DNA from: a virus
DNA length: 64,000 nt
Virus record (IMG/VR): IMGVR_UViG_3300029258_005088
Reading direction: 5' to 3' (one strand)
Each line of letters opens with the position of its first letter. Position 1 is the stretch's first letter. Below are positions 16,244-51,208 of this stretch, piece by piece. The notes beneath the pieces are model-generated. The model did no database searches. It was not told where the DNA came from and saw only the letters and a list, made by a program, of their open reading frames with translations. The position numbers were made by a program, and so were the translations under genes.

Positions 16244-16244
16244 A

Positions 16245-16625: not shown

Positions 16626-16638
16626 GGGGTTATTTCAA

Positions 16639-22735: not shown

Positions 22736-23716
22736 TTACGGAGCGATGTCACTCCACTCAGTCACGGGGTTGATGAACTCCGCACGAGCTACGCCGCCCG
22801 AGTTTTTCAGCGTGGCGCCGATCATCTCGTAGCAGAACATCTCGAACAGGAAGTTCTCGTGTTTGGTGGAGCAGGTAACGTCTTCGAACGTGTAGAAGTC
22901 ACCCAACTGATCCGGAGCGGTGAAGTAGTAAATCACGTTTTCGGGAACCAGGTCCGTCTTGATCGTGATGAACCACCGCAGACCCATGATCTGGCGTTCG
23001 GCGAATCCGTTCTTGAACATTTCCTCGGCGAGATCACCACCAATTTCGATCCGGTCCAGAGCGACGATGTCCCAGATCGTGATGTTGTTGATCAAGCCAA
23101 CCGCGGCGTTCAGGTGCCGGTTGGTCGAAGGCAGGGCCTTCATACCGTGACTCAGGCTGTCGCGGGACATCGGTCCTACGGTACAGTTGCCCTGAGCGGC
23201 GACTTCGGCGACACGGGGGTTCGCAGCGGCCGAAGCCGTGTTCTGCGGACCTACCACGGTGTTGACGACGGCCATGTACTTCCGGTCTTCTTCGGCCAGG
23301 ATGTCTTTCAACATCAGGTCGTTGAAGATCTGACGGATGTCCATGTCATAGGTCAACAGGTTGGCAACATCGGCGATGAAGCGGTGGGACATGATGCGGT
23401 CAAACATCACGCGGTACCGCGGAGCGTCGATGTAGTGGTTCATCGGAACGTTCCCGAAGGGGACGCTGTAGGCCGGAGGCGTGTCCGGCTCAACGTCCTT
23501 GACGATCACGGGCTTGACCGTGTCGACCTGACGGTCGAGGTCTGCCGGGGTGACCGGGATCGGGGGTTGGATGCGACGGGTGAAACCATCTTCACGCGCC
23601 CTTAGACGCAGATAGTCGTTTACGCCGCTGGCGGCCTTTTGCATGACGTACGGATCGTGGGATTTGAGTCCGTTGATCACGTTCTCATTGCGGGAGCGAA
23701 CTTCGTGGTTCAACAT
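22736..23716 (-). CDS. Major capsid protein (HK97 / encapsulin-like fold)
   Basis: 326 aa with strong RBS (AAGGAG) and a downstream terminator; follows protease, scaffold and decoration genes. Pattern FTRRIQPP...RYRVMFDRIMSHRF...DMDIRQIFNDLMLKDILAEEDRKYM. Confidence 0.85.
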   Translation of the reverse strand: MLNHEVRSRNENVINGLKSHDPYVMQKAASGVNDYLRLRAREDGFTRRIQPPIPVTPADLDRQVDTVKPVIVKDVEPDTPPAYSVPFGNVPMNHYIDAPRYRVMFDRIMSHRFIADVANLLTYDMDIRQIFNDLMLKDILAEEDRKYMAVVNTVVGPQNTASAAANPRVAEVAAQGNCTVGPMSRDSLSHGMKALPSTNRHLNAAVGLINNITIWDIVALDRIEIGGDLAEEMFKNGFAERQIMGLRWFITIKTDLVPENVIYYFTAPDQLGDFYTFEDVTCSTKHENFLFEMFCYEMIGATLKNSGGVARAEFINPVTEWSDIAP

Positions 23717-23763
23717 TTTTATTTTCTCCTTGTGAAGTTCAGTTCTGGGTTACTCCGGCTACC

Positions 23764-24408
23764 TTACGGCGTTGCGGCACGAGCTGGCAGATAGACAGGC
23801 CAGAAGCGGATCACACGTTGGTCGTAGACCTCGGTGCTGATGCCCTGGGAGTCATCCACGTCCACCTTGGAAACGATACCGACGACCTGCTCTTCGAGAG
23901 CAAGTTCGCCACCGGCCTGGATGGTGCCGACGTCTACCCAACCAGCGGGGTAGGATCCTGCGGCTTCGCCACCAGTTACGGTGTAGGCGACCAGGGGATC
24001 GTTTTCGTTGTAGGTGGATGCCTGGTTGAACTCGGTGGTGACGAGTTCGAAACCGCCGGTGGCGACGTAGCAGCCGACGTGACGACGTTTCACGGTCGTG
24101 TTGTCGGGAGCCAGAGTCTGGCCAGCGATGTTGCCGGCGTCACGACGGTACAGAGGTCCGTCGCCTGCCTGCCAGTCTTCGCCGCCAGCGACGTCGAAGT
24201 CGTAGGAAGCGTTGATGGCCCACATCGGCATGGCGTGCAAGGATGCCATACCTGCTTGGAGCAGGCCGTCAGTCCCGAGGGACATCAGGGAACCGCGATG
24301 GTTGTTCTCACTCGAGTTGAGATACTCGGTGAACTGCAGGTCGTGCATGCCGTCGTAACCGCTGACAGGGTCCAACAGATGGTCATAGTTTTGTCCGGGT
24401 GTCAACAT
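23764..24408 (-). CDS. Capsid decoration / cement protein
   Basis: 214 aa, beta-rich, immediately upstream of the capsid gene. Confidence 0.6.
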   Translation of the reverse strand: MLTPGQNYDHLLDPVSGYDGMHDLQFTEYLNSSENNHRGSLMSLGTDGLLQAGMASLHAMPMWAINASYDFDVAGGEDWQAGDGPLYRRDAGNIAGQTLAPDNTTVKRRHVGCYVATGGFELVTTEFNQASTYNENDPLVAYTVTGGEAAGSYPAGWVDVGTIQAGGELALEEQVVGIVSKVDVDDSQGISTEVYDQRVIRFWPVYLPARAATP

Positions 24409-24449
24409 TGTTAGTTGTCTCCGTGTTGATGGTTATTGACTTCCTCTCT

Positions 24450-24890
24450 CTACGCCTGAGCGTTGAGATTGTCGAACGTCGCCTCGAACGATTTGTCCGA
24501 TGCCCGCTTCTCCGCAGTGGCGGTTGGCGCAGCACTTGTGGGCCTGTCGACTGGTTTTCCTAGACTTGGAACCGATTGAGGCGGAGCGATCCGCTGCGCT
24601 GCCAACTTATCGACGAAGTCCAGCAGAGCTGTGGCGGGATTCTCTTTCACCGAAGTGATAGCCTGTTCACGGCTCGATTCCTTGAGGAAGCCGGCCTGGA
24701 CGAGATGATCCACCACTTCCGTGATCCGATTATCTTCCACGACCCCTTCCGAAGCCTGTTTCTGGCTGCTTGCGGCAGCCTCTTTCAACTGAGCGTTCTC
24801 AGTGCGAAGTTCCGTAATGAGCTCATCGGTTTCCTTGATGTAGGAAGCCATTTTCTGAGACAGTTCCGGAGGTACTTGTTGATTCGACAT
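24450..24890 (-). CDS. Small scaffold / prohead protein
   Basis: 146 aa with a coiled coil (LITELRTENAQLKEAAA) and KxA motifs (QKMAS, QKQAS, EKRAS). Confidence 0.6.
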   Translation of the reverse strand: MSNQQVPPELSQKMASYIKETDELITELRTENAQLKEAAASSQKQASEGVVEDNRITEVVDHLVQAGFLKESSREQAITSVKENPATALLDFVDKLAAQRIAPPQSVPSLGKPVDRPTSAAPTATAEKRASDKSFEATFDNLNAQA

Positions 24891-24912
24891 TGTATGTCTC
24901 CTTCTTGGTCCG

Positions 24913-26154
24913 TTACCGGCTCAGGATCTCGCGAACCTTGCTGGTCCAGTCATCCGAAGCTTCCTTCTCGGCAGCTTCTTCAGCACCCTCTTCGGCCGCT
25001 TCTTCGACTTCGGGAGCTTCCGCTTCCATAGCCTCTTCAGCACCCATTTCAGCGCCCATCTCGCCACCTTCGCCGGTGATTTCGGTCAGGGCCTGTGCGA
25101 GCTCTTCCGGGGGTACGCCGGCTTCCTGCAACGCCTGGACGTCTTCCATGGCCTGCTGCAGTTCTTCCGGGGTGACGCCCGCTTCGTCAAGAGCGGCGGC
25201 CACTGCATCCAGAGGATCGCCCTCGGGCATTTCGCCCATGGCTTCTTCCGGTGCCGGACCTCCGTCCATCGGGACTTCGGGCATTCCTTCTTCCATCGGC
25301 ATTCCGCCTTCGGCCATTACTTCGTCGGGGACGACGGCCTCGGGGAATTCCATGGCGACTTTGTCCAGAAGACCTTCGACGCCACCGACCTTCTCCAAGA
25401 TATTGGGGTCGATATCGGCGTGACTGACTTCGAACTCGTCCTGAGCTCTCTTGATGAGGCCTGCACGATAGCCTTCGAAATATTCTTGAGCTGCGTATGC
25501 GGCAGTCTTGTCGATCTGCATCATGACCTGCTCTTCTACGGAAGCAGTCTTCTCGCCGCCTTCGGGAGAACCGTCGAGATCATTTGGAATACCTGCGGGA
25601 GGATTCACCATCTTGTCCTGACTGTTCTCGCCACCGGGCTGGGGCTTGACTGCGGAACCACCGGCTTCCCCTGCGGGAGCGGCGCCGTTACCGTTGTCGG
25701 AAGCTTCTTTCGAGACACCTGCCAAAATGGAAAGAATGGCGTTGGCCTTCTTGTCGATGCTTGCGACCTTCTGTTCCTGAGTGATCTCCTGGGAGACCTC
25801 TTTGGGGAACTGGGTAGTGGGCTCGTCGACCATCAGGGTTTCGGTCCCTTGGTCGTCGGTGGGTTTCTTTTCGTCCGCTTCCGAGTTCGGCTTGGCCGTT
25901 ACTGCGGGTTGCGGCAGACCTTCAGCCGCCAGCGTGGACTGCTCCTTGCCCAGATTGGTCTGAGCCGTGGAAGCTGCTTGGGGTTTGGCCTGCTCTTCGG
26001 GATTGGCAGCCTTGGTGTCCTTGAAGGACGTCGAGCTGTCGTCAGCGGCTGTCTTCATCGAGGCTTCCTTCTCCGCTTGGCTACGGATGGGGTCTAGGAA
26101 GGTGCTGATGAGCTGCATGCTGTCCTTGATGCTTGCCTGCTTTTCGTGAGACAT
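24913..26154 (-). CDS. Prohead scaffold / core protein
   Basis: 413 aa, acidic low-complexity, with at least eight KxA motifs (EKQAS, EKEAS, MKTAA, QKVAS, SKEAS, EKTAS, DKTAA, EKEAS); directly after the protease gene. Confidence 0.7.
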   Translation of the reverse strand: MSHEKQASIKDSMQLISTFLDPIRSQAEKEASMKTAADDSSTSFKDTKAANPEEQAKPQAASTAQTNLGKEQSTLAAEGLPQPAVTAKPNSEADEKKPTDDQGTETLMVDEPTTQFPKEVSQEITQEQKVASIDKKANAILSILAGVSKEASDNGNGAAPAGEAGGSAVKPQPGGENSQDKMVNPPAGIPNDLDGSPEGGEKTASVEEQVMMQIDKTAAYAAQEYFEGYRAGLIKRAQDEFEVSHADIDPNILEKVGGVEGLLDKVAMEFPEAVVPDEVMAEGGMPMEEGMPEVPMDGGPAPEEAMGEMPEGDPLDAVAAALDEAGVTPEELQQAMEDVQALQEAGVPPEELAQALTEITGEGGEMGAEMGAEEAMEAEAPEVEEAAEEGAEEAAEKEASDDWTSKVREILSR

Positions 26155-26174
26155 AGCGTTCTCCTGGTTAATTC

Positions 26175-27626
26175 TCAGGTTGTGACCTGGTTGTGAACGA
26201 TTACGCGATGTGCATACTTGTCCACCCCGAGGCCAGCCATGAACGCTACCTGATATTTGGCGTATTCTTTCGCCAGGTACCGAGACTCAGCTCTCTGTGT
26301 CGGTGCTACAAGCAGACTCGCCCTCTTGCTTAGACCAGGGCCGCCGTTGATCGAGATCTTGATGATCCTTTTCTTTACCGGCCCATCTGCGGTTGAAAAG
26401 CCGTCGACCAATTTGCCGACCGTCTCTTCCAACCCCGTCCAGTGTCGGGGAGATAGTGGAACGTACGAAGAATCTGAGAAAACGTCGTTGTCTCCACTGC
26501 CTGCTAACTCTGAAAATACTCTTTTTACGCAGCAAGGCAAGTCTTTTGCATTATTTATATCCGATTTAGGCATCTTCAATATCACGCTGCAGAAAGCCTT
26601 CGGAGGCAGAAGAACCTCCTGTTTCTGTAACGCGGCGAGGACGTCTCCGACCGGGTATTGCTTCAATTCTTCAAGGGTTTCGTCGTCGAGATGGTTGTCC
26701 TGGAATGCGTCAGCCAGATCTGATTCTCCCGGGCCCATGCCCTTTGCATGGATCTCCTTCTCGATCTCCGCCGCCTTGGCGAACGCCGCGGCATGTTTCT
26801 GCTCCAGCTTGTCTCCGATCTCTCCGATCATGGAGAGAGGAAGCCAGATGGCATTGGGATCCTCCGGTGCCGGCAGGACTCCATCGGAGGCTACCTTGGA
26901 CAGGGTATATGCCGCACGGAATGCAGGGACACGAACTTCGGAGATGTCGTGGAGGTGCGGCTGGTCGTTTATGGCGGCGGCCTGGTGGCCTTCCTTGGAC
27001 AGCGACATCTTCTGATACTTGAGGTGATCGCAGTAACCCTTCTTGGTCTTCGCCTGGTTTCCGCAGATCGTGCAGATATCGTACGGAACTCCGCAACCCA
27101 TGGACCAGGTAACGTGGTCTCCGTTGGCGAGCTTCTGCAGGGAAGGTCCCCAGAGATCGTTCGGGAGCTTGACCACGAGCTCGCCTCGATGCATCACGGG
27201 ATTGTACCATTCCGCATGGATGCTTCCAAGCTCCGGGCCGCCCTTCTTCGAGTTGTTGTGCTCGCGATAAACGGCGCCATACTTCATGAAGGTTCTGTGG
27301 AACTTCTCCAGACCTCCGTCCAGCTCTATGCGACAGGGCTTGCCCGTCATGTGGTGTTCCGGAACCTCGTACGAAGCGGTCTTCTCGTTGAACCAGTCGG
27401 CGTTGTTGTTGGCGCCGTAGTATTCGCCTGCCCCCATCGTGATGAGATGGACGAAGCTATGACCCGGCTCCGGTGTGACGTCGATGTGCATTACCTGGTC
27501 GGATCCCGCTACCTTCTGAAGGAACTGAGCCTGTCCGAAGTCGATTCCCTTGCTATGCACCTTGAGCAAATGCGCAGTGGGTATATCCCGGAACCAGGAC
27601 GATGGAATGAATCGCTTGTGTATCAT
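26175..27626 (-). CDS. Prohead maturation protease with Zn-finger insert
   Basis: 483 aa. YREH, TWSMGC (candidate catalytic Ser) and LHDISEVRVPAFRAA (cf. HK97-type L-x-EIS-x-V-x-x-PA), with a CTIC...YCDH insert. Confidence 0.75.
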   Translation of the reverse strand: MIHKRFIPSSWFRDIPTAHLLKVHSKGIDFGQAQFLQKVAGSDQVMHIDVTPEPGHSFVHLITMGAGEYYGANNNADWFNEKTASYEVPEHHMTGKPCRIELDGGLEKFHRTFMKYGAVYREHNNSKKGGPELGSIHAEWYNPVMHRGELVVKLPNDLWGPSLQKLANGDHVTWSMGCGVPYDICTICGNQAKTKKGYCDHLKYQKMSLSKEGHQAAAINDQPHLHDISEVRVPAFRAAYTLSKVASDGVLPAPEDPNAIWLPLSMIGEIGDKLEQKHAAAFAKAAEIEKEIHAKGMGPGESDLADAFQDNHLDDETLEELKQYPVGDVLAALQKQEVLLPPKAFCSVILKMPKSDINNAKDLPCCVKRVFSELAGSGDNDVFSDSSYVPLSPRHWTGLEETVGKLVDGFSTADGPVKKRIIKISINGGPGLSKRASLLVAPTQRAESRYLAKEYAKYQVAFMAGLGVDKYAHRVIVHNQVTT

Positions 27627-27635
27627 AACGGTCTC

Positions 27636-29225
27636 CTATAGATAACCGAGTGTCTGGAGCACGCCTTGCTGGGCGTTGTCGGCGTTGCCTACGTGATGTG
27701 CGGTAAGAGCATCTCGCACGGCATTCACCGGAACGGCGTTCTGACGGATGGCGTTCTGGAGGGTCTTCATGTCTCTGTCCACTCGCTTGTCCACCCTGTC
27801 CTCCTGCCTTTCCGCTCTGTCCCGTCGACGATCTCTGCGCTCGAGAGCCCTCTCGGCCTCGTTCGTGACGTTCGTGATTCCCTGTGTGAGAGCATCCGAC
27901 GCGGAGCCGACGTTCACGGCGAATGGCGCGACTTTCTGAGGCTTGTCCTTTTCCTTCTGAGCTTCGAGACGGAGCTTCTCCTCGAGGACTTTCTTCTCGG
28001 TGGCTTCATTGCCCTTGCGTAGCTTCTCGGATATCTCCAGCTCCTGCTTGATCTCGAATGGGTCCTTGATCCCGGAGCTCTGGAGGTTGCGGATCATGAG
28101 GTTCTTGAGAATGGAAGGCTTGTCGTATGCCTCCGGGACGCTCTGGACGGAATCGTTGTAAGCCTTCATCAGAGACTTCTGGTCGTAGTCCTTGAGGTCT
28201 GGATCGTAGAGAGCCAACAACATGAAGGTGCGCTTGGCATCGTAGGATTTCATGCGGTTGTAGAAGGCCGGATCCAGCTGCTCCTCTACCCGCTTAGACT
28301 TTTTTTTTGAGCCCATCATATCCTGCATCGCATCGGGACTCATGCCCATACCTGCCAGCATGTTGGCGATGGTATTGGCGGCCACCGATCCGACGAAGGG
28401 CTCCGCGGCTTTCTTCTCGAACATGTTGAGCTCCACCTCGGCGGACGCCATCTTCTCGGCGGCTTCGTAGAGGCTGGCGATGGATAGGTAAGGCTCCTTG
28501 GCACGGAAGACGATGTGGTTGGCCATCTTCTGGAGATTGTCCGGGACGTCCTTGCGGCTCTTGTGGGATAAAAGCGCGACCAGTCCGGGACCGGTCGTGG
28601 GATAGCCCGTGACGATGCGGCGTGCCATCTTTTCGAACTGGCGATCGGACATCCTCTGGGAGATGCCTACCACGGTGTTCAGGGACTGCTCGAAGGCGTA
28701 TTTATGCTCCTGGATCTTCATCCGTAGCTGCTCGCGCATGCCGTCACAGAATTGCTGATGCTCGATCTTGGCCTGTTTGGAAAGACGGTCTATGGTCTTT
28801 AGCTCGTCCTCGGTAGGCTCTCTCTTCGGATGGTAGTTCTCCATGGCGTCGGATTCCTCCGTTGCCGCCTTCTGCATGACCTTGTCCGAGAAATCGAAGT
28901 CTATGGCTTCGAAGCTGCCCTCTGGAAGAGCGAACTCGCTGGCCGTCTTCTGCGTGGGCTGGAAAATGTTCTGGATGACTACGGAAGGATCGACTATGTC
29001 GAAGGGCTGTGCCCTGTCTTCCTGCCCCGCGGTCTTGAAGACGTGTACCGACTTCGACTTGTTGAATGCTTCCGCCGCCCTCTTTATCATTTCCGGAGGC
29101 ATCTTGCGATCCGATGCTACCTTGGTCAAGGCTTCGTTGGGAGACATGCCGTCGTGCGTAAGCTGGATCGTATGCTCCACGTCCTTGATCAAGTCCTGTT
29201 GTTCGGGTATACTGAGCTGATCCAT
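27636..29225 (-). CDS. Putative prohead core protein
   Basis: 529 aa, helical, with many KxA motifs (TKVAS, FKTAG, QKTAS, EKMAS, EKKAA). Confidence 0.55.
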   Translation of the reverse strand: MDQLSIPEQQDLIKDVEHTIQLTHDGMSPNEALTKVASDRKMPPEMIKRAAEAFNKSKSVHVFKTAGQEDRAQPFDIVDPSVVIQNIFQPTQKTASEFALPEGSFEAIDFDFSDKVMQKAATEESDAMENYHPKREPTEDELKTIDRLSKQAKIEHQQFCDGMREQLRMKIQEHKYAFEQSLNTVVGISQRMSDRQFEKMARRIVTGYPTTGPGLVALLSHKSRKDVPDNLQKMANHIVFRAKEPYLSIASLYEAAEKMASAEVELNMFEKKAAEPFVGSVAANTIANMLAGMGMSPDAMQDMMGSKKKSKRVEEQLDPAFYNRMKSYDAKRTFMLLALYDPDLKDYDQKSLMKAYNDSVQSVPEAYDKPSILKNLMIRNLQSSGIKDPFEIKQELEISEKLRKGNEATEKKVLEEKLRLEAQKEKDKPQKVAPFAVNVGSASDALTQGITNVTNEAERALERRDRRRDRAERQEDRVDKRVDRDMKTLQNAIRQNAVPVNAVRDALTAHHVGNADNAQQGVLQTLGYL

Positions 29226-29242
29226 CTCACGTTCTCCACGTA

Positions 29243-30172
29243 TTAGTTATCAATGGCCTTGTTCATCATTTTCTCTTCCAGTGCGGTATCGGGCTGGAAC
29301 TTCGGATTGAGCGTAGGCTCCGAAATACCGCTTCTGCTGGCTATCTTCTTCTCGAGGTCCGGGTCCAGGAACGCTTCTTCAAGCGTGGTGAGGATCTGCT
29401 GTGCAGTTCCCACGGCCGATCCGGATCCATCGCCATCTCCCAGACTCTTCCTTGCCTGCTCCATGTTCCACAGCCTGTCGGCCTGATCGAAAAGGGCCAT
29501 GGCCGGTTGGCTGAAACTGGCTCGAAGACTCGCAGTCTGGTGATATTCATTATAATAGCGTCTTTTAGTGCTAATTTCTCGCATAAATTTGACATAATCA
29601 TCGCTTAAGTCGGCGCCGCCCCTGAATTTTATCAGATCGTTTATGGCGTCGAAACCTCTGACGTAGGCGAAAGCCTTCCACGTAAAGTCGCAATCCGTGA
29701 CGGTATGCGTCGTATGAAGAGCGGTCGCCAGAATGGTGCAGAATATGGCGGCGGCGTTGTCTTTGTAATGCTCTATGTCGAAGTAGACCTTGCGAAACAT
29801 CTCGATGGTTGCGGCACCGTACAACGGATTGAAGGTATTGGCTATGTCCTTGTCGGAGGCGTCCGTCATGAGCATGGCCTCTATGAGCCACTTGTATCCG
29901 CCGGTGGGCCTGGAGTCGTGGAACAGCATGAAGGCTTCGTGCATTACCGGGTACTTTATCTGAAGTCTGCCGTTGTAGTGAACCAGGTCTTCCCGGCTCT
30001 CGTAGAAACGACATGCCTCTAGAAGCCACTCGTCCTTGGCGGCCATGCTTCTTCGAATGACCTCCTCCGGCAAGATGCCTTCCACGAGGCAGCGAAGCGC
30101 GATGTTCCATCTCCAGCAGGGTGCTCGGAGATAGTTCGGCTTCGCCGTCTCTGACTTCAGGATGTTGCTCAT
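29243..30172 (-). CDS. Hypothetical protein (head module)
   Basis: 309-aa coupled ORF; no family recognised. Confidence 0.6.
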   Translation of the reverse strand: MSNILKSETAKPNYLRAPCWRWNIALRCLVEGILPEEVIRRSMAAKDEWLLEACRFYESREDLVHYNGRLQIKYPVMHEAFMLFHDSRPTGGYKWLIEAMLMTDASDKDIANTFNPLYGAATIEMFRKVYFDIEHYKDNAAAIFCTILATALHTTHTVTDCDFTWKAFAYVRGFDAINDLIKFRGGADLSDDYVKFMREISTKRRYYNEYHQTASLRASFSQPAMALFDQADRLWNMEQARKSLGDGDGSGSAVGTAQQILTTLEEAFLDPDLEKKIASRSGISEPTLNPKFQPDTALEEKMMNKAIDN

Positions 30173-32316
30173 ACGCCGATATCTTCCGACAACTGCCCGA
30201 ACAATGCCTCGGAGGCATCCGGACTGTACGCCGTCTTCTCCTTCAGGAACAGTACCAGGTCGCCCGTGCTCTTGAAGACGTCGCGGAGAGTGTCCTCGAG
30301 CTTGGCCATGTCTTCCTTTCCGTAGCGATCTTCGAACTCGTCGTTGTGCCAGTAGAACAGGAACATCATGCGTCCGATCTTGTCCATGCCGCGGATCATG
30401 TCCACGATGTAGTCCTTTCGGAGATCGGAGACGTCGGCTTTGTCGATCAGGCCCTGCAGGACACTGACGTCGAAGACTTCCTTGACGCCGGCTTCGGCCG
30501 CCTGCATCGCACGCTCGATGGCTTGGTTCGGCATCATGGATCCGTCGGAGCGGCGTGCGCCGTCCAGGGGACGTCCGCTCTTGGCCTCGAACTCCGTTCT
30601 TACCGCGGTATCTTCCTTGGCGGAAGGACCGCCCATGAACGGAACCGGGCTGTCGCCGTATGCCGCCGTATCATAGGGAGCGGCGTGCTTGATCAGGAAT
30701 CCCTTTCTGTGGCCCATGGCGTCCTCTGCCTCTTTCATCAGGCGCTGTGCCGTGGCCGCCTGGATGCCGTGACCCAGTACGAGATGCTGCAGAGCCGCCG
30801 TCTTCTCGACGAGGCCGGTGTTGTTTTCCTTGTAGAATACCTGTGCGGTACCACCATCGGCATAGATCTCGATATGGTCGACGCCCGCTGTCTTGTAGAT
30901 CTGCTGAGCCACGGTCTCGGAATTGCCCAGTAGGATGTCCGGACGGTCGTCGTCCGTGAAGATGCGGGTGCCTTCGGGGATAAATAGATAACCGTCGGTC
31001 GCTTTCAGCCGTGCGTCGGAATCCACGAACTCGACGGCTACCTTTGTCGGGTCAAGACCATCGCCCGACCTGCTCCGGGCATTGTCGCCGGCCGTATTCG
31101 CGATACGAACGTAGACAGCGCCGTCGGGGGACTTGCCTTTCGGCAGGATCTCGGTCTCGAGAACACGCGAGGGGCTTTGAACGAGCATCACGTTGGTTCC
31201 CGGTTCGAGTCCCATAAGGGCCTGCTTCGTGGCTTTGCGTCCGCCTTGGATCGCAGTGATGGCCTTCTCCGGGATGCTTGTAGCCGGCTTGGAGAAAATC
31301 GACGTGGAGTTCATCCGGAGATAGTTTCTTGGCTTGCCGATATCGATCATGGCGACGGTCCGGCCGTTGTTCTGTTGGAACCTACGGTCTTCCATACCGG
31401 GCTGGCTGAGGGACACCGGACACAGAATGATGTAGGGCTTGAAAGTGCCGTCCAACATGAGTACGTCGTAGATGCCCGGACAGGTGGGGTTCTGGATGGC
31501 GGAGGAGTTGACCTCTTCCTGGAAGACCTTCGAGAAGCTGTGACGGTCGTCCTTGACGTAGATGCCCTTGTTCATGAGAAGCTCTTTCTCGCGGTTGGTG
31601 AGATCACGGGCTTCCTTGGACATCGGATCGGTATAGAACTTGACCTTCTGGTCCAGCTCCGGCTTCTGATCCATGGTCATCTGGGCGGCTTGCTTGGCGA
31701 GACCCTCGACCTGATCCAGATCGTAGAAGCGGAACAGACACTGGGCGAAATCGGGATTGTTCAGGAAAGTGTTGAGGAACACTTGAGCGGCTTCCTTGCC
31801 GAGAAGCTTGATGTCCTCGGTGAGATCCACGGCACGATACCCATCCGGGGTCGCACGCTTGGCCATCTTCTGCCAGTCCTCCGTATCGACCAGGGAATTG
31901 GCGTCGAACGCGGCCTTGCCCATACTGGAGTAGGGCTGGTAGACTCTGGTGTTGCCGGGGGTGGCGAAGATGTCGTTCTTGTGACCTTCCTCTCCCTGCT
32001 GGAAACCGTGGCCGAGAGCCGAGAGTCCTTCCTGCTGCAGAGCGGCGATCCAGTTGTCCATGGAAGGTACGAAGAGATCCTGTTGCTTGATCCACAACAG
32101 ATCGAATCCCTTGATCTCCCCTTTAAGGAAGAATACCGGGATGTACAACCACACGCCGTTCATGACGAAAGCCGCCACGCCGACTGCCTGTGTATCATCC
32201 TCGTTCTTGTCGATTATCTGAAAACCGACTCGGTAATCCACCAACGACGGCAACCGTTCATTGATCTGCGCATCAACGAGCTGCCCAAACTTTTGTTCGA
32301 AAGTAATCTCAGCCAT
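30169..32316 (-). CDS. Putative internal head / core protein
   Basis: 715 aa with RBS GAGGA and KxA motifs (AKRAT, AKQAA, YKTAG, EKTAA, IKHAA, EKTAY). Confidence 0.6.
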   Translation of the reverse strand: MAEITFEQKFGQLVDAQINERLPSLVDYRVGFQIIDKNEDDTQAVGVAAFVMNGVWLYIPVFFLKGEIKGFDLLWIKQQDLFVPSMDNWIAALQQEGLSALGHGFQQGEEGHKNDIFATPGNTRVYQPYSSMGKAAFDANSLVDTEDWQKMAKRATPDGYRAVDLTEDIKLLGKEAAQVFLNTFLNNPDFAQCLFRFYDLDQVEGLAKQAAQMTMDQKPELDQKVKFYTDPMSKEARDLTNREKELLMNKGIYVKDDRHSFSKVFQEEVNSSAIQNPTCPGIYDVLMLDGTFKPYIILCPVSLSQPGMEDRRFQQNNGRTVAMIDIGKPRNYLRMNSTSIFSKPATSIPEKAITAIQGGRKATKQALMGLEPGTNVMLVQSPSRVLETEILPKGKSPDGAVYVRIANTAGDNARSRSGDGLDPTKVAVEFVDSDARLKATDGYLFIPEGTRIFTDDDRPDILLGNSETVAQQIYKTAGVDHIEIYADGGTAQVFYKENNTGLVEKTAALQHLVLGHGIQAATAQRLMKEAEDAMGHRKGFLIKHAAPYDTAAYGDSPVPFMGGPSAKEDTAVRTEFEAKSGRPLDGARRSDGSMMPNQAIERAMQAAEAGVKEVFDVSVLQGLIDKADVSDLRKDYIVDMIRGMDKIGRMMFLFYWHNDEFEDRYGKEDMAKLEDTLRDVFKSTGDLVLFLKEKTAYSPDASEALFGQLSEDIGV

Positions 32317-35692: not shown

Positions 35693-35926
35693 TCATGGTA
35701 AGCCCGCGTTCTTGTGCATGTACCCGTCCATGTAGCCTTGATCGAATACGGATGCTTTCTTCGACATCTTCTTGGACTTCTTCTTTTTCTTTTTGTCCTT
35801 GGGATTCATCTTGCGCTTGTTGGCGGTGGCATAGAACACGCGCTTGCCTTCTTCCTCGCCGTAACGCTCCTGCATCTCTTTCATGACCTTGTCGCCACTG
35901 CCTTTGTAATATTCCTTGACCGGCAT
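35693..35926 (-). CDS. Small basic protein ending in the GYMDGYMHKNA motif
   Basis: 77 aa; start overlaps the upstream stop; RBS GGAG. Confidence 0.65.
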   Translation of the reverse strand: MPVKEYYKGSGDKVMKEMQERYGEEEGKRVFYATANKRKMNPKDKKKKKKSKKMSKKASVFDQGYMDGYMHKNAGLP

Positions 35927-37173
35927 TACACAACTCCCTCTCTAAGTTTGTTATCTTTATTTGCAATGGTCATTCCACTGGATAATGCCTTAAGCACCAG
36001 TTTAAACGCATTTCTATCTGTCAGGTACAGATACCTCATAGCGTCCGTCTTGGAGTGCTTCTTTCTAAGAGAATCATACTTATCCAGTGCCTTTCCGACC
36101 GCTGCGTATTCTTTCTTGTCAAAAGGTGACGGGATGCCCATGGATTTTGCTCTCTCATTGGACCTATGGAAAAGCCTTGCTCTACTCTGAGTCTTCCCTG
36201 GTTTTTCAGATTCCTGTAACCAAATCTTAGACGGACCTCCTAGACGGCTGAAATTTTCCGATCTGGTCATATTAGCGAAGTCTCCAACGAACTTCTTCCA
36301 GTTATCGTCTCCTTCCACCTTGGAGGCTATGTACTGTTTGTATTTATCTACCATATTGCCCCATTCCTCATTCAAAGAAGAGTCTGGGTATAGTGACTGT
36401 TTCACAGGACTGTCATTAGTTATTAAGGCAGTGTTCTTCTTAGGATCGGCCCAATAATTCATTATGCTCCTAAGTTCTTGATACGGCTGTGCCTTGTTCT
36501 TCATATCACTCTCTAACCAAGCCCTCTCTTTATCCGACGGCTCGGTCTTCCATGTCCGTCCATGGAATCGGGCGGCCCTTCTATAGTCTTCGTCTCCTAC
36601 CGGAAGCCCTTTCGCAAGATCGAACGCTGGATACTTGACGTCTGGTCCATCTATATCCGGATTGTGTCCTACAGTATAGGCAGGTGCGCGGCTAACATAC
36701 TTTGGAGGCCTTGTGTCTATCCAATGTCCGGTTCTTCCCTTCCAATTCAGATGACCAAAGTCTTTCATTGCTTTCAGCAGTGCCGGATGACAACCTCCTC
36801 CAAGGTTGCAGGCGTCAATATTCAAAGCATAGTCACCCTTCGAGGGCACTGCCCTGCTGACGTGATTCATGATTGTTGAATTTACTAAGTCCTTGTTGTC
36901 TACAGAGTAGGACGACCTTCCGCCACCATGCCCGTGTATACCTACCGTGGGAAGGCCTTTTACCGACCTAAATTGAGATGGGTCATCCTTAAGTCTAGCG
37001 TCGAATGCGTTATCCGGTCTACTGGGAGAATATGCCGTCGTGTATTTCTCGTTAATAGGGGTTGGTCTCCTTATATTATACTTCCAGGCGCTTTTGGCTT
37101 TTGACTGGTTATCTCCGGCTCTCTTGTTCATATAGCCGTCCTGGTAGCCTGTTCTATAGGACTTATCGGTCAT
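35926..37173 (-). CDS. Leader-tagged protein with a clan-CD (caspase / C80-like) cysteine protease domain
   Basis: Leader SYRTGYQDGYMNKRA; strand-His VGIHGHG and strand-Cys LNIDAC dyad pattern. Confidence 0.55.
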   Translation of the reverse strand: MTDKSYRTGYQDGYMNKRAGDNQSKAKSAWKYNIRRPTPINEKYTTAYSPSRPDNAFDARLKDDPSQFRSVKGLPTVGIHGHGGGRSSYSVDNKDLVNSTIMNHVSRAVPSKGDYALNIDACNLGGGCHPALLKAMKDFGHLNWKGRTGHWIDTRPPKYVSRAPAYTVGHNPDIDGPDVKYPAFDLAKGLPVGDEDYRRAARFHGRTWKTEPSDKERAWLESDMKNKAQPYQELRSIMNYWADPKKNTALITNDSPVKQSLYPDSSLNEEWGNMVDKYKQYIASKVEGDDNWKKFVGDFANMTRSENFSRLGGPSKIWLQESEKPGKTQSRARLFHRSNERAKSMGIPSPFDKKEYAAVGKALDKYDSLRKKHSKTDAMRYLYLTDRNAFKLVLKALSSGMTIANKDNKLREGVV

Positions 37174-39222
37174 TCACAGCACTCCCTTGGTCGCTCTCTG
37201 CAGAGATATTCGTTTTCCGCTCTCGAAGAGGGGCTTGACCTTGTCCAGCCTGGTCCCTGTCTGGCGGGCATACTGGCTGTTTCTGAAAGATTGTCTGAGG
37301 CGCTCGGCGTTTTCCGCCGTGGGATTGACCATGAGAGCGTTCACGGCGTTATGGCCCTGTTGGAACTCCTTGAGATTGTCTCCCAGTGCATAGGCATGGA
37401 TCTTGAGCCAGTTCTGCATCATGGGGTTGAGTTTGCGCCAGTTCGGGTTCCAGGCATCGAGCTGTGTCGGGACGATTTTCTCGAGGTGGTGCTTGGTCGC
37501 CGCCCAATCCTCTTTGGTCTTGATGGTGCCTTTGCCGCTGCGGAGCTGTTTGAATCTGTTGTTCCCCCAGATCTTGGAAAGCTTGGAGGTGTTGGCCGGA
37601 CTCATGTAATGCCCGGTACCGATCGTGGGATAAGGCTCCTTGACGCCTTCGGCATTGGTGACGTGCTTGGCGGTAGGGCTGAAACCCTCGGCCTTGCTGA
37701 GCCACGGGTGTATGGCTTCATGGGCCTTGTCTCCGGCAGTCTTGGACGCCATTCTCGTAGAAGGATCTTTATTTACGAGCCCCAGGAAATCTTCTGCCAT
37801 ATCCCATAATAAGGCTTCCCATTCTTTACCCTTCCCTTCCCTCTCCATTATGCTGCGCAATGCCCGTAGATCAAAAGAATCATCAACCATAGGCTTCAGT
37901 TCACGTTTTATCTTTCTGTCCGGAGACGTCGCCCACTGGAGAAATGCAAAGGCTTTCTTCTTATCGCTGACGTCTACTCCCATGTGACTTGCGAGTGCCT
38001 TGAGATTACCTAATCTTGCTTCTCTTTCTATCTGCCGCATGGTGTAGGGAGCGGTGTGTCTCTTACTTCGAGCCTCTATGAACTTTCCTTTTTCATCCGT
38101 ATCCTGCACCATCTCGCTCATCTTATCGTGAGCCCACGTGTCCGCACTAAGGTGTCTCTTGTTTCTAGCCGCATTCTCCCTTACGACATCTTGTGCCGTT
38201 CCCTTTCCTTCGCCCTTAAGCGGGTACCATTTTCTGGCATGCTGAAGTACGTGTCGATACTCATGAGGAAGGAGTCGAGCCGTATGAGGCCTTATCCAAA
38301 TATCTGGGATGCGTTTACCAGGAGAGTATATGAACCCTCCTCCGCTTTTGTCGGGAGCGTCCTCATTTCTAAGAATCTTGTACGGAAAAGGCCTGTCCAA
38401 TGCCTTGTCATCCAGCCTCATGGCAAACCTATTCTTATACCCTTCTTTCTTCCTATACTCTCTGGCCTGCTCAAGGGACTTCTTGAAGGCTTCTGGACTA
38501 GGATACGTACTGCTTATTACTCTCCTAGGCGTATCCACTCCTGAGACAATAGGCTTTACGACAGGGACGGCTTTCTTAGAAATTTCTTTACTAGCATCTG
38601 CAGGTACCTCTCCCTTGTCTCCGGCAGTCTTCGCTATGATCTTGCCGTCCTTCAGCTCGTAAGGAGCCCATACCTGGCCTTCTACATAGTTGCCCGTCAG
38701 CCTGGGCAGCATGTCGAGCTTGCCTGCTTTCCTAAGCTCCACCAAGGTCATCAGCGTCTTGACCTCCTCACTGAGATTGCTCTTGTTGTGTCGCTCTCTA
38801 CGGAGATAATCGAAGGAGTCGCCGGGCGAAAACGTGGAAGCCTGCAGAAGCTCTTCGTCTATAGGATATACCTGGGTCGACTTGATATCGTGACCCCATG
38901 CCTTCTTCTGCTTGTCGGTACGGAAATACAAAGGATGCTTCAACTGTACCTTGTCGCCGAGTTTCTTGACGGCCTCCTCTCGTAGCGCCTTTTCAAGTCG
39001 AACACGGTCCTGCTTGTACCGATCGGTGTTCTTGTCTGGGGTATGCTCTTTATACCACTGCAGAACCTGCTCCTGCTCCTCTGGAGGCATATCGAGGAAA
39101 TTTCCGGGAAGCTTGCCTCCACGACCATAGTGATATCCCTCGACCTTGGCAGTCTTGTCCATATACCCGTCGAGATATCCCGAGGATCCAGACAACAGAA
39201 CTGCTGTGGTTACCGACATCAT
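37174..39222 (-). CDS. Three-domain polyprotein: ART-like / zincin metallopeptidase / T4-type lysozyme
   Basis: Domains separated by KTA motifs at aa 23-25, 198-200 and 494-496. YHY...FSPGDS...YVEGQVW; HEYRH...EREARLG; AEGF...PTIGTGH. Confidence 0.7.
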   Translation of the reverse strand: MMSVTTAVLLSGSSGYLDGYMDKTAKVEGYHYGRGGKLPGNFLDMPPEEQEQVLQWYKEHTPDKNTDRYKQDRVRLEKALREEAVKKLGDKVQLKHPLYFRTDKQKKAWGHDIKSTQVYPIDEELLQASTFSPGDSFDYLRRERHNKSNLSEEVKTLMTLVELRKAGKLDMLPRLTGNYVEGQVWAPYELKDGKIIAKTAGDKGEVPADASKEISKKAVPVVKPIVSGVDTPRRVISSTYPSPEAFKKSLEQAREYRKKEGYKNRFAMRLDDKALDRPFPYKILRNEDAPDKSGGGFIYSPGKRIPDIWIRPHTARLLPHEYRHVLQHARKWYPLKGEGKGTAQDVVRENAARNKRHLSADTWAHDKMSEMVQDTDEKGKFIEARSKRHTAPYTMRQIEREARLGNLKALASHMGVDVSDKKKAFAFLQWATSPDRKIKRELKPMVDDSFDLRALRSIMEREGKGKEWEALLWDMAEDFLGLVNKDPSTRMASKTAGDKAHEAIHPWLSKAEGFSPTAKHVTNAEGVKEPYPTIGTGHYMSPANTSKLSKIWGNNRFKQLRSGKGTIKTKEDWAATKHHLEKIVPTQLDAWNPNWRKLNPMMQNWLKIHAYALGDNLKEFQQGHNAVNALMVNPTAENAERLRQSFRNSQYARQTGTRLDKVKPLFESGKRISLQRATKGVL

Positions 39223-39230
39223 ACCTTCCC
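39148..39230. repeat. 83-bp direct repeat, copy 1 (RBS + start + leader)
   Basis: 6 mismatches against 40206-40288. Confidence 0.95.
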
Positions 39231-40280
39231 TTTGTGTTTGCCGGGCTGCTGGTCCCTAGCCATAAGACTGCCCTCATCGATGAGGTCCTGCATCAGCTCA
39301 CGTTCCTCTGGCGCCAGGGCCTTGAGAGCCTTCTCTGCGTCCATGGTCTCACGCAGCTTGTCGTACTTCTTGATGAGTGGGTAGATCTTCTTGTAGTACT
39401 CGTCGTAGAACTTGAGGTAGCCGGCGTCATCTTCCTTGGCCTTGGACCTGCCGTACTCGTTGTCGCTGTATCCGTAGTTCCGCGCACGCTGGGCCTTGAG
39501 AAATTCGGCTGTGCGTGCAACCTGCGAAGCATTGAACTGCCCGGTACGCGTCTTTGCCTTGGCCGCATCCGTCTGGCGCTTTATGGAACTCTGTAGGTGG
39601 TCTGCTTTCGGAGCGTAGGGCATCATGCCCATGCTTATGAAGGTGCCTTCCCCACCCCGCATATTCTCTCGTCTGGTTTCTTCATGCTTCCTATCCGCAC
39701 CCTCGAAGGTGTTCGGATACTTGCGCAGTGCCGCACGCATCTTGGCATCGTTGAGCCTCCGATTAGCACTTCTGATGGCGGCCTCGGTTTCATACCTTTT
39801 GCCTGCTATTCCAGTGTGTATCGTCTTGGGGAACGTCTTGGGGTCCGGCAGTGCCGCACGCTCGGCTTCCAGCATCTTCAATCTCCTGGCATCGATCCGC
39901 CTCCCATGCGCACCTTGCTCCCTATTGGTCCACTCTATCATCTTTCGGAGACGTGCCTGATCTGCAGGGTTCTTCGCAGCCTTGAGCTGCTTCTCGTAGT
40001 CCTGGCGTATCTTATCGTAGCCCTGGTAATCCTTCTCCATGCCCTGCAACTGTTGATGAGTAACATTCTTTGGCTTTTCCGCCTTGATTGGCTTCGTCTT
40101 GGATGTAGTTGTCTGCGGAACCTTGATCTTACCGTAGTTCTTGGAGACTCCGCCTTCGACGGGCAGTGCTGCATGCTTGTTCAGCTCGCTCACGAATCTC
40201 ACGCCGGCAGTCTTGTCCATGTACCCGTCGAGATATCCCGAGGATCCAGACGACAAAAATGCTGTGGTCACCGACATCAT
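39219..40280 (-). CDS. Leader-tagged basic hypothetical protein
   Basis: Start reassigned to ATG 40280 (ATGA overlap; 353 aa). Leader MMSVTTAFLSSGSSGYLDGYMDKTA, then a second leader-like segment RFVSELNKHA. Confidence 0.65.
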   Translation of the reverse strand: MMSVTTAFLSSGSSGYLDGYMDKTAGVRFVSELNKHAALPVEGGVSKNYGKIKVPQTTTSKTKPIKAEKPKNVTHQQLQGMEKDYQGYDKIRQDYEKQLKAAKNPADQARLRKMIEWTNREQGAHGRRIDARRLKMLEAERAALPDPKTFPKTIHTGIAGKRYETEAAIRSANRRLNDAKMRAALRKYPNTFEGADRKHEETRRENMRGGEGTFISMGMMPYAPKADHLQSSIKRQTDAAKAKTRTGQFNASQVARTAEFLKAQRARNYGYSDNEYGRSKAKEDDAGYLKFYDEYYKKIYPLIKKYDKLRETMDAEKALKALAPEERELMQDLIDEGSLMARDQQPGKHKGKV

Positions 40281-40288
40281 GCCTTCCC
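40206..40288. repeat. 83-bp direct repeat, copy 2
   Basis: Matches 39148-39230 at 77 of 83 positions. Confidence 0.95.
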
Positions 40289-41887
40289 CATAAACTCCAG
40301 TGTTTTCTGAACCAGCCAAGACCGTCCGGAGGCTTCCTTCTTCATAGACGAGCCTTCTTCTTCGGGAGCTCCGTCCATTTCCTCGACCTCTTCCTCGCCT
40401 TCTTCGCGGAAGTCCTCATCGGTTGGATCCAGCTCCTCGAGCAGAGCTTCCAACTCCCCGACGTGTACCTTCTCCTCGTCGGCTATATCCTGAAGAATCT
40501 GTGCGGCACGCCTGTTCTCGGTGCTGTCGGCCACTGTTTCGTAGTGCTTGATCGCCTTCTGCTCTTCTATGATGGCGTCTCGAACGGCACGAGTCAGTTC
40601 ACGACGACCCAGCCTGGGAAGCTCCTTGACGTTCTCCATGCTACTCGCAGTCTTGGCTATATGTCTCGTCTCGAAAAGCACCTTGATCAGTGCCGCCCGT
40701 TTCTCCTGGCTTATCATAGGTGCCTCCAATTCTGAATACGCGTATTCACTTTTGCCTTCCTTACCTTCCATCTTCTCGAGGTCTGTGTAATAATCAGGCA
40801 TTTCTGTAAGATGATCCAACGCGATTTCTTCTGCAAGCTTCTGGTCTCTTGTATGTTCCTTTTCGACCTTCTTCCCCTTCTTGAGCTCTTCTTTGTCGAC
40901 ATCCTTCGGAGTTACGTTTTCTTTGTCGGCAAGGCCCGTAGTATCGGATCCGACTTTCTGCAGGGGCTTCAACACTTTCGAGGTATCCCCACGGGCGACC
41001 CACTTCTTGAACTGGTCCATGGTAAGTGCGGTGATGGAGCCGAGACCGTCCCAGCCTTTCTCGTAGTTGTCTAGATATCCCTTGCGGGCATCCTTCTCGT
41101 TGGTGAAGCCCAGCATGCACTTGTGCTCGTCGAAGCCTTTGCCTCCTTTGTTCGTCTGGTTGACGACGAACACCATCTCAGAGTCTACGTCCGGTCCGAT
41201 GAAGACGTCTACGTGATCGCCGTCGGCGTCGGACTTAGTCCGCTTGATGTAGCCGTAGTGATGCTTCATCAGGGTCTTCCATTCCGTACCGTCCGGGGAT
41301 TTGCCTTTACGATACTGGCCCTTTAGATTCTCGATGGTGATGTCCATACCATGCAGGCGGGTATGACCCTTGCGATAATTACCTGCTTCGGCCTGTTCCT
41401 TGGACTTCGGCTGAACCGGCGTGCCCTTGATCTTTAGGGAAGCTTCTTTTTCACCCGGCTCCTGCGAAGGGGCTCCATATATCTCGGCCAGTTGTAGCTT
41501 TCTCACCTCCTCGTTACTTAGATAGTTGCCCTCGTCATCGATGGGATGATATAAGTCCTCTCCGCTATTCAACTGCTCGGTCTCGAACTCGGTCAGATAA
41601 CCACGCCTCATTTCCCACAATTTCTTTTCTAGGTACTTACCCAGTGCGTCCTCTTCTTCCGTACCTCCTGTGCCATAAGACGAAGGTATCGCCGCATTTA
41701 TTTTTGTATACAGCCTCAGTCTTTGTCCTGGAGTGAGTTCTTCCCAGTGTGCTTCTTCCAGCTCATTCTGGGCTATTCCTGGTACTGTCTGTGTGGCTCC
41801 TTCGTCTACCACAGCGTCTCGGGCCTCCTTCTGCTGCTTCGCCTCCTTCCACGAAAGGATCATATTCGTAAAATCTGTTCTAGTCAT
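40277..41887 (-). CDS. Polyprotein: unknown domain / InPase / DUF5661-like / ferritin-like
   Basis: Start reassigned to ATG 41887 (536 aa). GNYRKGH...IEN...YGYI...DGDHVDVFIGP...FDEHKCMLGF; VEKEH...IALDHLTEMPDYY; EEQKAIKHYE...EEKVHVGEL. Confidence 0.75.
   Translation of the reverse strand: MTRTDFTNMILSWKEAKQQKEARDAVVDEGATQTVPGIAQNELEEAHWEELTPGQRLRLYTKINAAIPSSYGTGGTEEEDALGKYLEKKLWEMRRGYLTEFETEQLNSGEDLYHPIDDEGNYLSNEEVRKLQLAEIYGAPSQEPGEKEASLKIKGTPVQPKSKEQAEAGNYRKGHTRLHGMDITIENLKGQYRKGKSPDGTEWKTLMKHHYGYIKRTKSDADGDHVDVFIGPDVDSEMVFVVNQTNKGGKGFDEHKCMLGFTNEKDARKGYLDNYEKGWDGLGSITALTMDQFKKWVARGDTSKVLKPLQKVGSDTTGLADKENVTPKDVDKEELKKGKKVEKEHTRDQKLAEEIALDHLTEMPDYYTDLEKMEGKEGKSEYAYSELEAPMISQEKRAALIKVLFETRHIAKTASSMENVKELPRLGRRELTRAVRDAIIEEQKAIKHYETVADSTENRRAAQILQDIADEEKVHVGELEALLEELDPTDEDFREEGEEEVEEMDGAPEEEGSSMKKEASGRSWLVQKTLEFMGKA
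40733..40748. repeat. TGAATACGCGTATTCA palindrome (copy 2)
   Basis: Exact 16-bp palindrome in an inter-domain linker (encodes EYAYS). Confidence 0.95.
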
Positions 41888-45026: not shown

Positions 45027-45730
45027 TTCTTCGCACGTTCCGCCATCTTGGCAAGAGCCTCTTTCTTCTTTTTCTCCTCGTCCGCCTCTCCGGAGGCGAG
45101 TGCGAGTTCCTTTTTCTGCAGCTCGAGTTCCTTCTTCTGCAGAGCTTCCATGGCCTTGAGCCTGTTCTGGATCTTCTTCCGTTCGATGACGGTCATTATC
45201 GTGAGAACGAGGGGAAGGCCTATGGCAACTCCTCCCGCTGCGTAGGCATATGGCTTGATCTGGTTCCAGGTGTCCTGTCCCGCCGATGTTATGCCTCTGT
45301 TGATCTGTCCCTGGATATCCAAGTCGGAGTTTGTCTTATCGACTATCTCCTGAACTTTATCCCGGGCGCGGTTGAGACTGGCGTCCACTAGCTCTCGAGA
45401 ACGCCTATCAGCCAAGTCATAGCTCTTGTTTGTCTGCTCTCTCACTCTTTCCGCAGCGGCGTCGATTATGTCTTCATACTCCCTTTTATACAGTCTTCCT
45501 GTCTCTTCAGCCGTGCGGGCAAGCTCGTCTCGCCACTCTCGTCCCTGGTCTCGCCTGGTACGGCCCACTAGACCTTCCACGCCTTTGGAGACTGCCCAGC
45601 CAGGACCTTCCGTGACAACGGTCTTCGCCACGTTCCATGGCGAGAACTTCTCCTTGAGACTTTCATACAAGCGATCACCGAACCCGGATTCCTTGTGCAT
45701 GTAGCCAGCTATGTATGCTTCGTTGTTCAT
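45023..45730 (-). CDS. Leader-tagged coiled-coil protein with one TM helix
   Basis: MNNEAYIAGYMHKES leader; AYAAGGVAIGLPLVLTIMTVI helix. Confidence 0.65.
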   Translation of the reverse strand: MNNEAYIAGYMHKESGFGDRLYESLKEKFSPWNVAKTVVTEGPGWAVSKGVEGLVGRTRRDQGREWRDELARTAEETGRLYKREYEDIIDAAAERVREQTNKSYDLADRRSRELVDASLNRARDKVQEIVDKTNSDLDIQGQINRGITSAGQDTWNQIKPYAYAAGGVAIGLPLVLTIMTVIERKKIQNRLKAMEALQKKELELQKKELALASGEADEEKKKKEALAKMAERAKK

Positions 45731-45739
45731 ATTGATCCT

Positions 45740-46795: not shown

Positions 46796-46798
46796 GCT

Positions 46799-51205: not shown

Positions 51206-51208
51206 TCA

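Follow-up and report, generated by a model that had tools for sequence, protein, structure and literature searches.

Prohead proteases decide which head proteins stay, leave or get activated, and the only phage rules that have been mapped in the literature searched, those of the T4 and phiKZ types, place the cut after Glu: the T4 enzyme reads I/L-x-E (PMC12991175) and that of SPN3US reads A-x-E (PMC10052503). The herpesvirus assemblins, for their part, cut at YLQA|T and VQA|S (PMC4498786). Here we analyse the head genes of an uncultured phage of ~200 kb, IMG/VR record IMGVR_UViG_3300029258_005088, in a 64-kb stretch of its DNA (the window). The tripeptide Lys-x-Ala (K-x-A) is over-represented far beyond chance in the head module of this phage, and the prohead protease encoded at 26175-27626 on the minus strand probably reads it as a signal in the head proteins, in itself and in cargo, most likely cutting after Ala; the cleavage, the bond and the packaging are what we infer from the protein sequences, their conservation and their models.

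In T4, the capsid-targeting sequence (CTS) ends in the motif of the prohead protease gp21 and is removed after packaging, being both an address and a cut site; HK97 gp5, in turn, is cut after a Lys. The proteases gp175 of phiKZ and gp245 of SPN3US belong to large phages with many ejection or cargo proteins in the head, virion RNA polymerase subunits among them; a short P3-x-P1 motif marks the cuts in many of their head proteins, and these proteases also process themselves (PMC10052503). The phage described here would recall them in these traits. However, the phiKZ-type cut follows Glu (A/S/G-x-E), the capsid protein there has ~750 amino acids (aa) and here is of the HK97 type with 326 aa, and no sequence relationship was detected.

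The window is a single long minus-strand block of virion genes, and the protease protein is recorded on a contig of 201,176 bp. The eight consecutive open reading frames (ORFs) of 22736-32316 constitute the head module; 17 downstream virion ORFs and 20 upstream ORFs, all within the window, served as controls. No Pfam family was found for any of the eight, and only two of them gave a PHROG hint: 26175-27626 matched 'head maturation protease' (E=3e-4) and 22736-23716 'major head protein' (E=2e-3). A nucleotide search against deposited phages returned no match to the window, and the only cultured relatives reached by protein search were Salmonella phage Arash and three Vibrio phages (D69, D181 and D148).

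Lys-x-Ala in the head module

An earlier note on this DNA had proposed K-x-A as the cleavage motif, with a comparison of head and tail proteins as the check. Each ORF was shuffled with its protein composition preserved and, separately, all 400 residue pairs spaced i/i+2 (a-x-b) were scored, in order to avoid cherry-picking. The comparison came out in favour of the note: K-x-A ranks first of the 400 pairs in the head module, with 54 copies seen and 20.6 expected (P=7e-10; 3e-7 after Bonferroni correction), and no other pair of that module survives the correction, every x-E pair included. In the downstream virion ORFs 33 copies stand against 26.4 expected, which is not significant; the upstream ORFs hold 72 copies, with 67.3 expected. 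At the level of single ORFs, the shuffles give p<=0.002 for K-x-A-[SAG] in 24450-24890, 24913-26154, 26175-27626, 27636-29225 and 30169-32316, and no comparable enrichment in any ORF of 877-22671.

The preference is narrow in its pattern. Head-module z-scores are 7.8 for K-x-A, 12.3 for hydrophobic-x-K-x-A and 13.8 for K-x-A-S; S-A-x-K, R-x-A, K-x-S, K-x-G, K-A, K-x-x-A and E-x-A are all at expectation there, and [VLI]-x-A shows no enrichment. The reversed A-x-K is depleted in six head ORFs (24450-32316 and 22736-23716, minus strand; 7 seen, 18.3 expected, z=-3.0). Over 53 sites the consensus has L/M/V/F at P5 and Q/E/S/D at P4, followed by K, any residue and A, then by a P1' that is S (16 sites), A (11) or N/T/G/E (3-4 each), and finally by acidic residues. 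Neither Lys codon is avoided at these sites, Ala is encoded by all four of its codons and Ser by codons of both families, in ordinary proportions. Because the codons vary so freely, selection is placed at the peptide level and not on a DNA word, and a DNA-level explanation of K-x-A was rejected. The recognition signal would then be hydrophobic (P5)-x-Lys (P3)-x-Ala (P1), with the cut most likely after Ala; in most cases Ser/Ala/Gly and then acidic residues come next.

The same scan was applied to nine other, independent head modules, from three IMG/VR contigs, four long metagenome contigs, Arash and Vibrio D69, whose proteins are 25-45% identical to those described here. K-x-A was the first pair in eight of them and the third in the ninth; S-x-E, L-x-E or T-x-E stood among the top three pairs in three relatives. 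In phage G, both the protease gp19 and its neighbour, that phage's gp21, are likewise enriched in K-x-A.

The protease and its own candidate sites

The AlphaFold2 model of the protease (mean predicted local distance difference test, pLDDT, 81.6) is rich in beta strands in its N-terminal domain and helical in its C-terminal half. In VIA-align, T4 gp21 (5jbl_A) was the first match, with Z 10.8 and a root-mean-square deviation of 3.1 A for 147 aa over model residues 1-233; the varicella-zoster virus protease was second (Z 5.6), that of human cytomegalovirus reached Z 4.0, and unrelated folds scored at most 4.7. Foldseek placed gp21 chains at ranks 1, 2 and 4, with probability 0.92-0.97. Together with the invariant Ser of the WSMG motif, this fold upholds the assignment of 26175-27626 as a prohead protease that had been made in the earlier note.

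Sequence comparison tells another part of the story. The search for homologues yielded 196 proteins, nearly all metagenomic, and phrog_18299, 'head maturation protease', was matched by 15/32 members of the family. No Pfam family reached E<=1 in more than one of these 32 members, peptidase families did so in none, and a PDB profile search with the family returned neither gp21 nor any other PDB chain. Against T4 gp21 itself, hhalign gave a probability of 0.2% and pairwise sequence alignment was not significant. Because there is no sequence-level similarity to gp21, Pfam or PDB despite the structural match, we consider the protein, on the strength of its model, a genuine prohead protease of the gp21/assemblin fold that belongs to a family separate from gp21 proper (MEROPS S77, Peptidase_S77). 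Four of its homologues (P0005, P0029, P0064 and P0111) are 653-844 aa long; three of the four carry LAGLIDADG_3 (PF14528) and match only ~62% of the query length, a sign that an intein or a homing endonuclease may have inserted into this gene in some relatives.

True homologues exist in cultured phages: gp19 of phage G, gp222 of Arash and VPHD69_0270 of Vibrio D69 share the arrangement SMGC...CxxC...C, a K-V-A after the catalytic domain and head neighbours rich in K-x-A. The protease matches gp19 by hhalign with a probability of 99% (E=3e-18), and relatives were reached by tblastn at E=4e-24 to 2e-25. Identity to these three is 27-33% and limited to the catalytic domain, and gp19, with 300 aa, is devoid of the long C-terminal domain.

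In an alignment of 32 homologues that are 32-76% identical to the window protein, H60, H110, H123, S175 (within W/F-S-M-G), C185, C188 and C199 are invariant. Catalytic residues cannot be mapped by alignment since there is no significant sequence similarity to gp21, but H123 and S175 are, judging from their order and spacing, the likely counterparts of gp21 H85 and S140, the two pairs being 52 and 55 residues apart, respectively. Ser175 and probably His123 would thus form the active site, with the putative zinc-knuckle insert placed after the Ser strand. The Cys-rich insert that the earlier note had described is indeed a constant element of the family, its position 201 being His in most homologues and Asp or Cys in a few; it is also kept in Arash gp222, Vibrio D69 and phage G gp19, whereas T4 gp21 has no Cys at all.

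Only two segments of the model fall below a pLDDT of 50, residues 237-262 and 433-440, and they contain SKVAS and SKRAS, respectively. At the first of these sites the 32 homologues all have K244 and A246, and nearly all L242 and V245; EKVAN in Arash, QKVAS in Vibrio D69 and EKVAS in phage G gp19 occupy the equivalent place behind the catalytic domain. The second is looser, R-K-V/A, in a distant clade of homologues. The proposal that K-x-A falls on domain boundaries consequently holds for the protease, the one protein checked. Inside the procapsid, the enzyme would release its catalytic domain by a self-cut at SKVA|S and lose a C-terminal anchor at SKRA|S. QKVAG may be cut too. In turn, K165-L-A167 probably forms a structural helix instead of serving as a cut site, judging from its sequence, so that not every K-x-A would be cut.

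The likeness to T4 gp21 goes beyond the fold, in which 147/165 residues are aligned: both genes adjoin those of scaffold and capsid, the His and Ser, proposed ones here, lie ~52-55 residues apart, and the motif has a P3-x-P1 layout. In both phages it is repeated along the scaffold and core proteins, appears a single time close to the start of the capsid protein, and closes short N-terminal leaders of otherwise unrelated proteins, here predicted to be packaged. Nevertheless, gp21 has 212 aa against 483 aa with a large helical C-terminal domain here, the Cys3-His/Asp insert is present only here, and the motif is Leu/Ile-x-Glu there and Lys-x-Ala here, so that the S1 pocket would have to take a small residue instead of Glu and the S3 pocket a basic residue instead of a hydrophobic one.

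The assemblins (pUL26/UL80a, MEROPS S21) share with the protease the fold class and would also share Ala at P1 with Ser/Thr at P1', and the fusion to a C-terminal assembly domain, with one candidate site in the linker right after the catalytic domain, where SKVA|S resembles the R-site, and another before a conserved C-terminal helix. Here, however, P3 is Lys and not Val/Leu/Ile, the scaffold is a separate gene and not nested in frame, and there are many sites per substrate instead of two; furthermore, the structural similarity is much weaker than to gp21, and only a Ser and a His are proposed, the assemblin triad being Ser-His-His. The specificity would therefore be new among mapped phage proteases and precedented within the fold, because P1/P1' would follow the assemblin rule and only P3 would differ, being Lys where assemblins have a hydrophobic residue. 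The earlier suggestion of a different specificity is thereby kept with respect to known phage proteases; within the fold, Ala at P1 and Ser at P1' are the herpesvirus rule.

Scaffold, capsid protein and cargo as predicted substrates

The coordinates of the elements considered are collected in Table 1. The quoted strings QKVAG, SKVAS, SKRAS, QKAAS and WSMG and the Cys insert all occur on the minus strand, at the places where they had first been noticed.

Table 1. Coordinates in the window of the head-module genes, the predicted cargo block, and the motifs and residues considered
Feature	Position	Strand	Remarks
HK97-fold major capsid protein, 326 aa	22736..23716	-	Foldseek and profile match
QKAAS, aa 26-30, sole K-x-A of the capsid protein	23627..23641	-	conserved register
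214-aa protein between scaffold genes and capsid gene	23764..24408	-	no K-x-A, only 2 Lys (0.9%); predicted non-substrate
Head-module protein, 146 aa	24450..24890	-	5 K-x-A-[SA] sites, 0.37 expected
Probable scaffold, 413 aa	24913..26154	-	acidic, low-complexity; between protease and capsid genes
Prohead protease precursor, 483 aa	26175..27626	-	N-terminal catalytic domain aa 1-~236, disordered linker, helical C-terminal domain ~264-430, second linker, conserved C-terminal helix
SKRAS, aa 433-437	26316..26330	-	proposed second processing site before the conserved C-terminal helix; kept in most close homologues
SKVAS, aa 243-247	26886..26900	-	proposed release site between catalytic and C-terminal domains; L242, K244, V245, A246
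CxxC-x10-C-x-H insert, CTIC...CDH, aa 185-201	27024..27074	-	putative zinc knuckle directly after the Ser strand
WSMG, aa 174-177	27096..27107	-	Ser175 the proposed nucleophile, invariant in 32 homologues, 52 residues after H123
L-Q-K-L-A, aa 163-167	27126..27140	-	K165 and A167 nearly invariant, just before the Ser strand
His123 (YREHNNS)	27258..27260	-	proposed catalytic His; invariant; resembles the T4 gp21 'ELNHPP' context
QKVAG, aa 37-41	27504..27518	-	K38 invariant, A40 at least 90% in 32 homologues; variable stretch after
Head-module protein, 529 aa	27636..29225	-	13 K-x-A, 4.7 expected, p<0.001; no PHROG or Pfam match
Head-module protein, 715 aa, Arash gp218 homologue	30169..32316	-	14 K-x-A, 4.3 expected, none followed by Ser; no family match
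Upstream block with shared leader	35926..57174	-	predicted protease-processed capsid cargo; 7 ORFs and 1 internal copy
Leader example, GYxDGY-hydrophobic-x-K-x-A type			MNKQAYLDGYMHKEA

The scaffold and core labels are probable ones, drawn from position and composition. The scaffold ORF holds 12 K-x-A (3.7 expected) and six K-x-A-S (0.2 expected), including EKQAS at aa 4-8, and EKEAS at aa 396-400 lies 14 residues from the C-terminus. Across eight relatives, whose flanking sequences cannot be aligned, a K-x-A is found near the N-terminus in all eight, two sites lie mid-protein in five, and one lies ~14 residues from the C-terminus in seven. Similarly, D-K-L-A near aa 95 of the 24450-24890 protein is kept in six of seven relatives. 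The protease would chop this scaffold and the core proteins 24450-24890, 27636-29225 and 30169-32316, the Arash homologue of the latter, gp218, being detected in virions (PMC10585845), into small pieces, and the scaffold would be released from the shell at the site ~14 residues from its C-terminus, which resembles the herpesvirus M-site that frees scaffold from shell.

The product of 23764-24408, with homologues at the same place in L004, L008 and L009, may decorate the head or form part of the shell, and would then be spared by the protease.

For the capsid protein, every top Foldseek match of a modest model (pLDDT 59) is an HK97-fold capsid protein, the profile matches gp27 of phage G (PDB 6wkk; E=1.5e-6), and the Arash homologue gp226 is abundant in virions (PMC10585845). 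Its single K-x-A is kept by ~96% of 119 homologues (K in 114, A in 116), and lies exactly 14 residues before an invariant R-E-D/T-G-F in the window protein and in eight relatives with identity down to 25%. Cutting there would remove ~29 residues from the N-terminus. The capsid protein of phage G starts ~22 residues later, with neither N-terminal extension nor K-x-A; the extension is thus dispensable for the shell in at least one relative.

A third group of candidate substrates is encoded upstream. The leader [GA]-Y-x-x-G-Y-hydrophobic-x-K-x-A/S opens seven ORFs, those starting at 57174, 54808, 53277, 45730, 40319, 39222 and 37173, an internal copy is located in 45740-46795, and the leader also exists in the relatives L003, L004 and L009. 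Similarity between the proteins that bear it ends right after the Ala. More generally, 16/28 head and upstream ORFs carry K-x-A in their first 45 residues, against 3/18 downstream ORFs (Fisher p=0.007). The T4 CTS is arranged likewise: proteins with nothing else in common begin with a short conserved leader, and the protease motif closes it. The GYxDGY-hydrophobic-x-K-x-A leaders would accordingly be removed from the cargo encoded upstream.

Two adjacent ORFs on the minus strand, 37174-39222 and 39219-40319, display a nearly identical extended N-terminus, MMSVTTA.L.SGSSGYLDGYMDKTA, and then diverge; the shared portion begins at residue 14 of the 39219-40319 ORF, whose true start may be an internal Met.

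Genes resembling those of RNA polymerase beta'/beta lie within the virion gene block at 32379-34211 (beta'-like, just upstream of the head module) and 46799-51205 (minus strand), and the RNA polymerase subunits of Arash rank among the most abundant proteins of virion preparations (PMC10585845). This suggests a packaged RNA polymerase as in the phiKZ-like phages, though the capsid protein is of a different type.

Weighing the alternatives

Several observations weigh against a cleavage role of K-x-A, or against details of it. The capsid P1' varies (Q/A/S/K/T/E/G) among the 119 homologues, and its first 29 residues are well conserved; so are the first 37 of the protease, which lead up to its first site and moreover lie within the modelled fold. 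K165-L-A167 resembles 'DKLAAN' (G-D-K-L-A-A) ahead of the catalytic Ser of T4 gp21. His123 was assigned from order and spacing, and H60 and H110 are equally invariant. The scaffold-like gp223 of Arash has been reported at 100% coverage in virions (PMC10585845), at odds with a complete removal; that preparation was probably not clean, 116 proteins having been detected. Furthermore, the literature searched holds no published cleavage product, mature N-terminus or activity for the phage or its relatives: the Arash proteomics paper and its supplements (PMC10585845) give coverage percentages and a gene table with no peptide termini, the multi-omics paper on phage G contains no cleavage mapping, and nothing relevant was found on a Lys-x-Ala or KxA phage protease motif.

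Some of these facts would suit a K-x-A that is never cut and acts as a short binding or addressing motif, docking for instance scaffold, core and cargo on the inner shell, on the portal or on the C-terminal domain of the protease, a reading that we hold to be unlikely. It would account for a motif that closes a shared N-terminal leader resembling a targeting tag, for sequence conserved on both sides of the site at the start of the capsid protein and, in the protease, over residues 1-37, and for the full coverage of gp223 in Arash virion preparations (PMC10585845). Nevertheless, 12-13 copies in one protein, or copies placed in the disordered linkers of the protease, would be unexpected of a docking signal, and a P3-x-P1 layout with small P1 and P1' fits the protease sites of this fold. 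Besides, as the T4 CTS is both address and cut site, the two roles are not exclusive.

Cleavage at K-x-A might also occur at another bond, for example after Lys, or be the work of a host enzyme or of another phage protease, which appears to us quite improbable. It is true that Lys, after which HK97 gp5 is cut, is the most strictly conserved residue and that the bond has been placed indirectly. The cut is proposed after Ala because the conservation of the leaders stops at Ala and not at Lys, and because the characterised enzymes of the fold read P3-x-P1, Ala with a small P1' being here as specific as Lys: K-x-S and K-x-G are unenriched, and K-x-A-S reaches z=13.8. As to the enzyme, the motif travels with the protease family across Salmonella, Vibrio and Lysinibacillus/Bacillus hosts, which speaks against a host protease, and PHROG and Pfam scans of the head module revealed no second protease.

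A protease that cuts after Glu (A/S/G-x-E or L/I-x-E), with K-x-A marking another thing such as a lysine modification or cross-link, is very unlikely. The earlier note was right that T4 and giant-phage proteases cut after Glu, and gp21, the closest structural match, is one of them; in the head module [SAG]-x-E is mildly enriched (77 seen, 57.7 expected, z=3.1), and x-E pairs come near the top in the three relatives mentioned above. However, 12 of the 77 coincide with the acidic P2'/P3' of a K-x-A site, another 28 belong to the acidic scaffold protein, and removing the 12 leaves an unremarkable 65 against 57.7; [LI]-x-E, the T4-type site, stands at 37 for 28.3 expected (z=1.8), no x-E pair is significant after correction, and what is conserved at the start of the capsid protein and in both linkers of the protease is a K-x-A, never an x-x-E. 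An after-Glu rule was set aside, since the excess comes largely from the flanks of K-x-A and the acidic scaffold; after-Glu cutting is not the dominant signal here.

Finally, a by-product of composition or helical periodicity, conceivable in that the enriched proteins are Ala/Lys/Glu-rich and largely helical or low-complexity, is effectively refuted and retains almost no credit, given the composition-keeping shuffles (p<0.001), the 400-pair scan, the pattern controls (A-x-K depleted; K-x-x-A, K-A, E-x-A and R-x-A unenriched), the single conserved sites in the non-repetitive capsid protein and protease, and K-x-A as the top pair in 8/9 relatives.

Cleavage of head proteins, protease and cargo at K-x-A, the reading that we favour, could be extended beyond this phage. 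We put forward, tentatively and with more doubt than conviction, that K-x-A|S is the cleavage rule of a very large, almost wholly uncultured gp21-fold family, ranging from phages of ~160-210 kb to phage G with 499 kb, which would have kept the Ala|Ser cut of assemblins, and that together with the leader it makes up a complete 'address, load and cut' code. If so, the full injected capsid cargo, which in this phage would comprise multi-enzyme proteins and perhaps RNA polymerase subunits, could be read from the genome; and if three cultured groups and hundreds of large uncultured phages follow the rule, cargo and mature ends would become predictable from sequence. Phage and herpesvirus proteases would then be linked by specificity besides fold. 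CBASS (cyclic-oligonucleotide-based antiphage signalling system) sensors have recently been reported to be switched on when the prohead protease cleaves a loop bearing the motif of the phage (PMC12991175), so a different motif would entail a different visibility to them. In addition, a new orthogonal pair of protease and tag would be at hand for packaging foreign proteins in capsids. The prediction is directly testable in the cultured phages Arash, Vibrio D69 and G.

Some minor features of the locus and of a relative may be added. The G+C content is 0.51-0.52 in 36001-44000 of the window and 0.55-0.58 elsewhere, and the interval 40320-41880 contains only short ORFs, on mixed strands. In the relative L009, a PAPS (3'-phosphoadenosine-5'-phosphosulfate)-reductase-like gene and a CysN/CysC-like gene (GTP_EFTU plus APS_kinase) are situated directly after the capsid gene, at 15401-18167.

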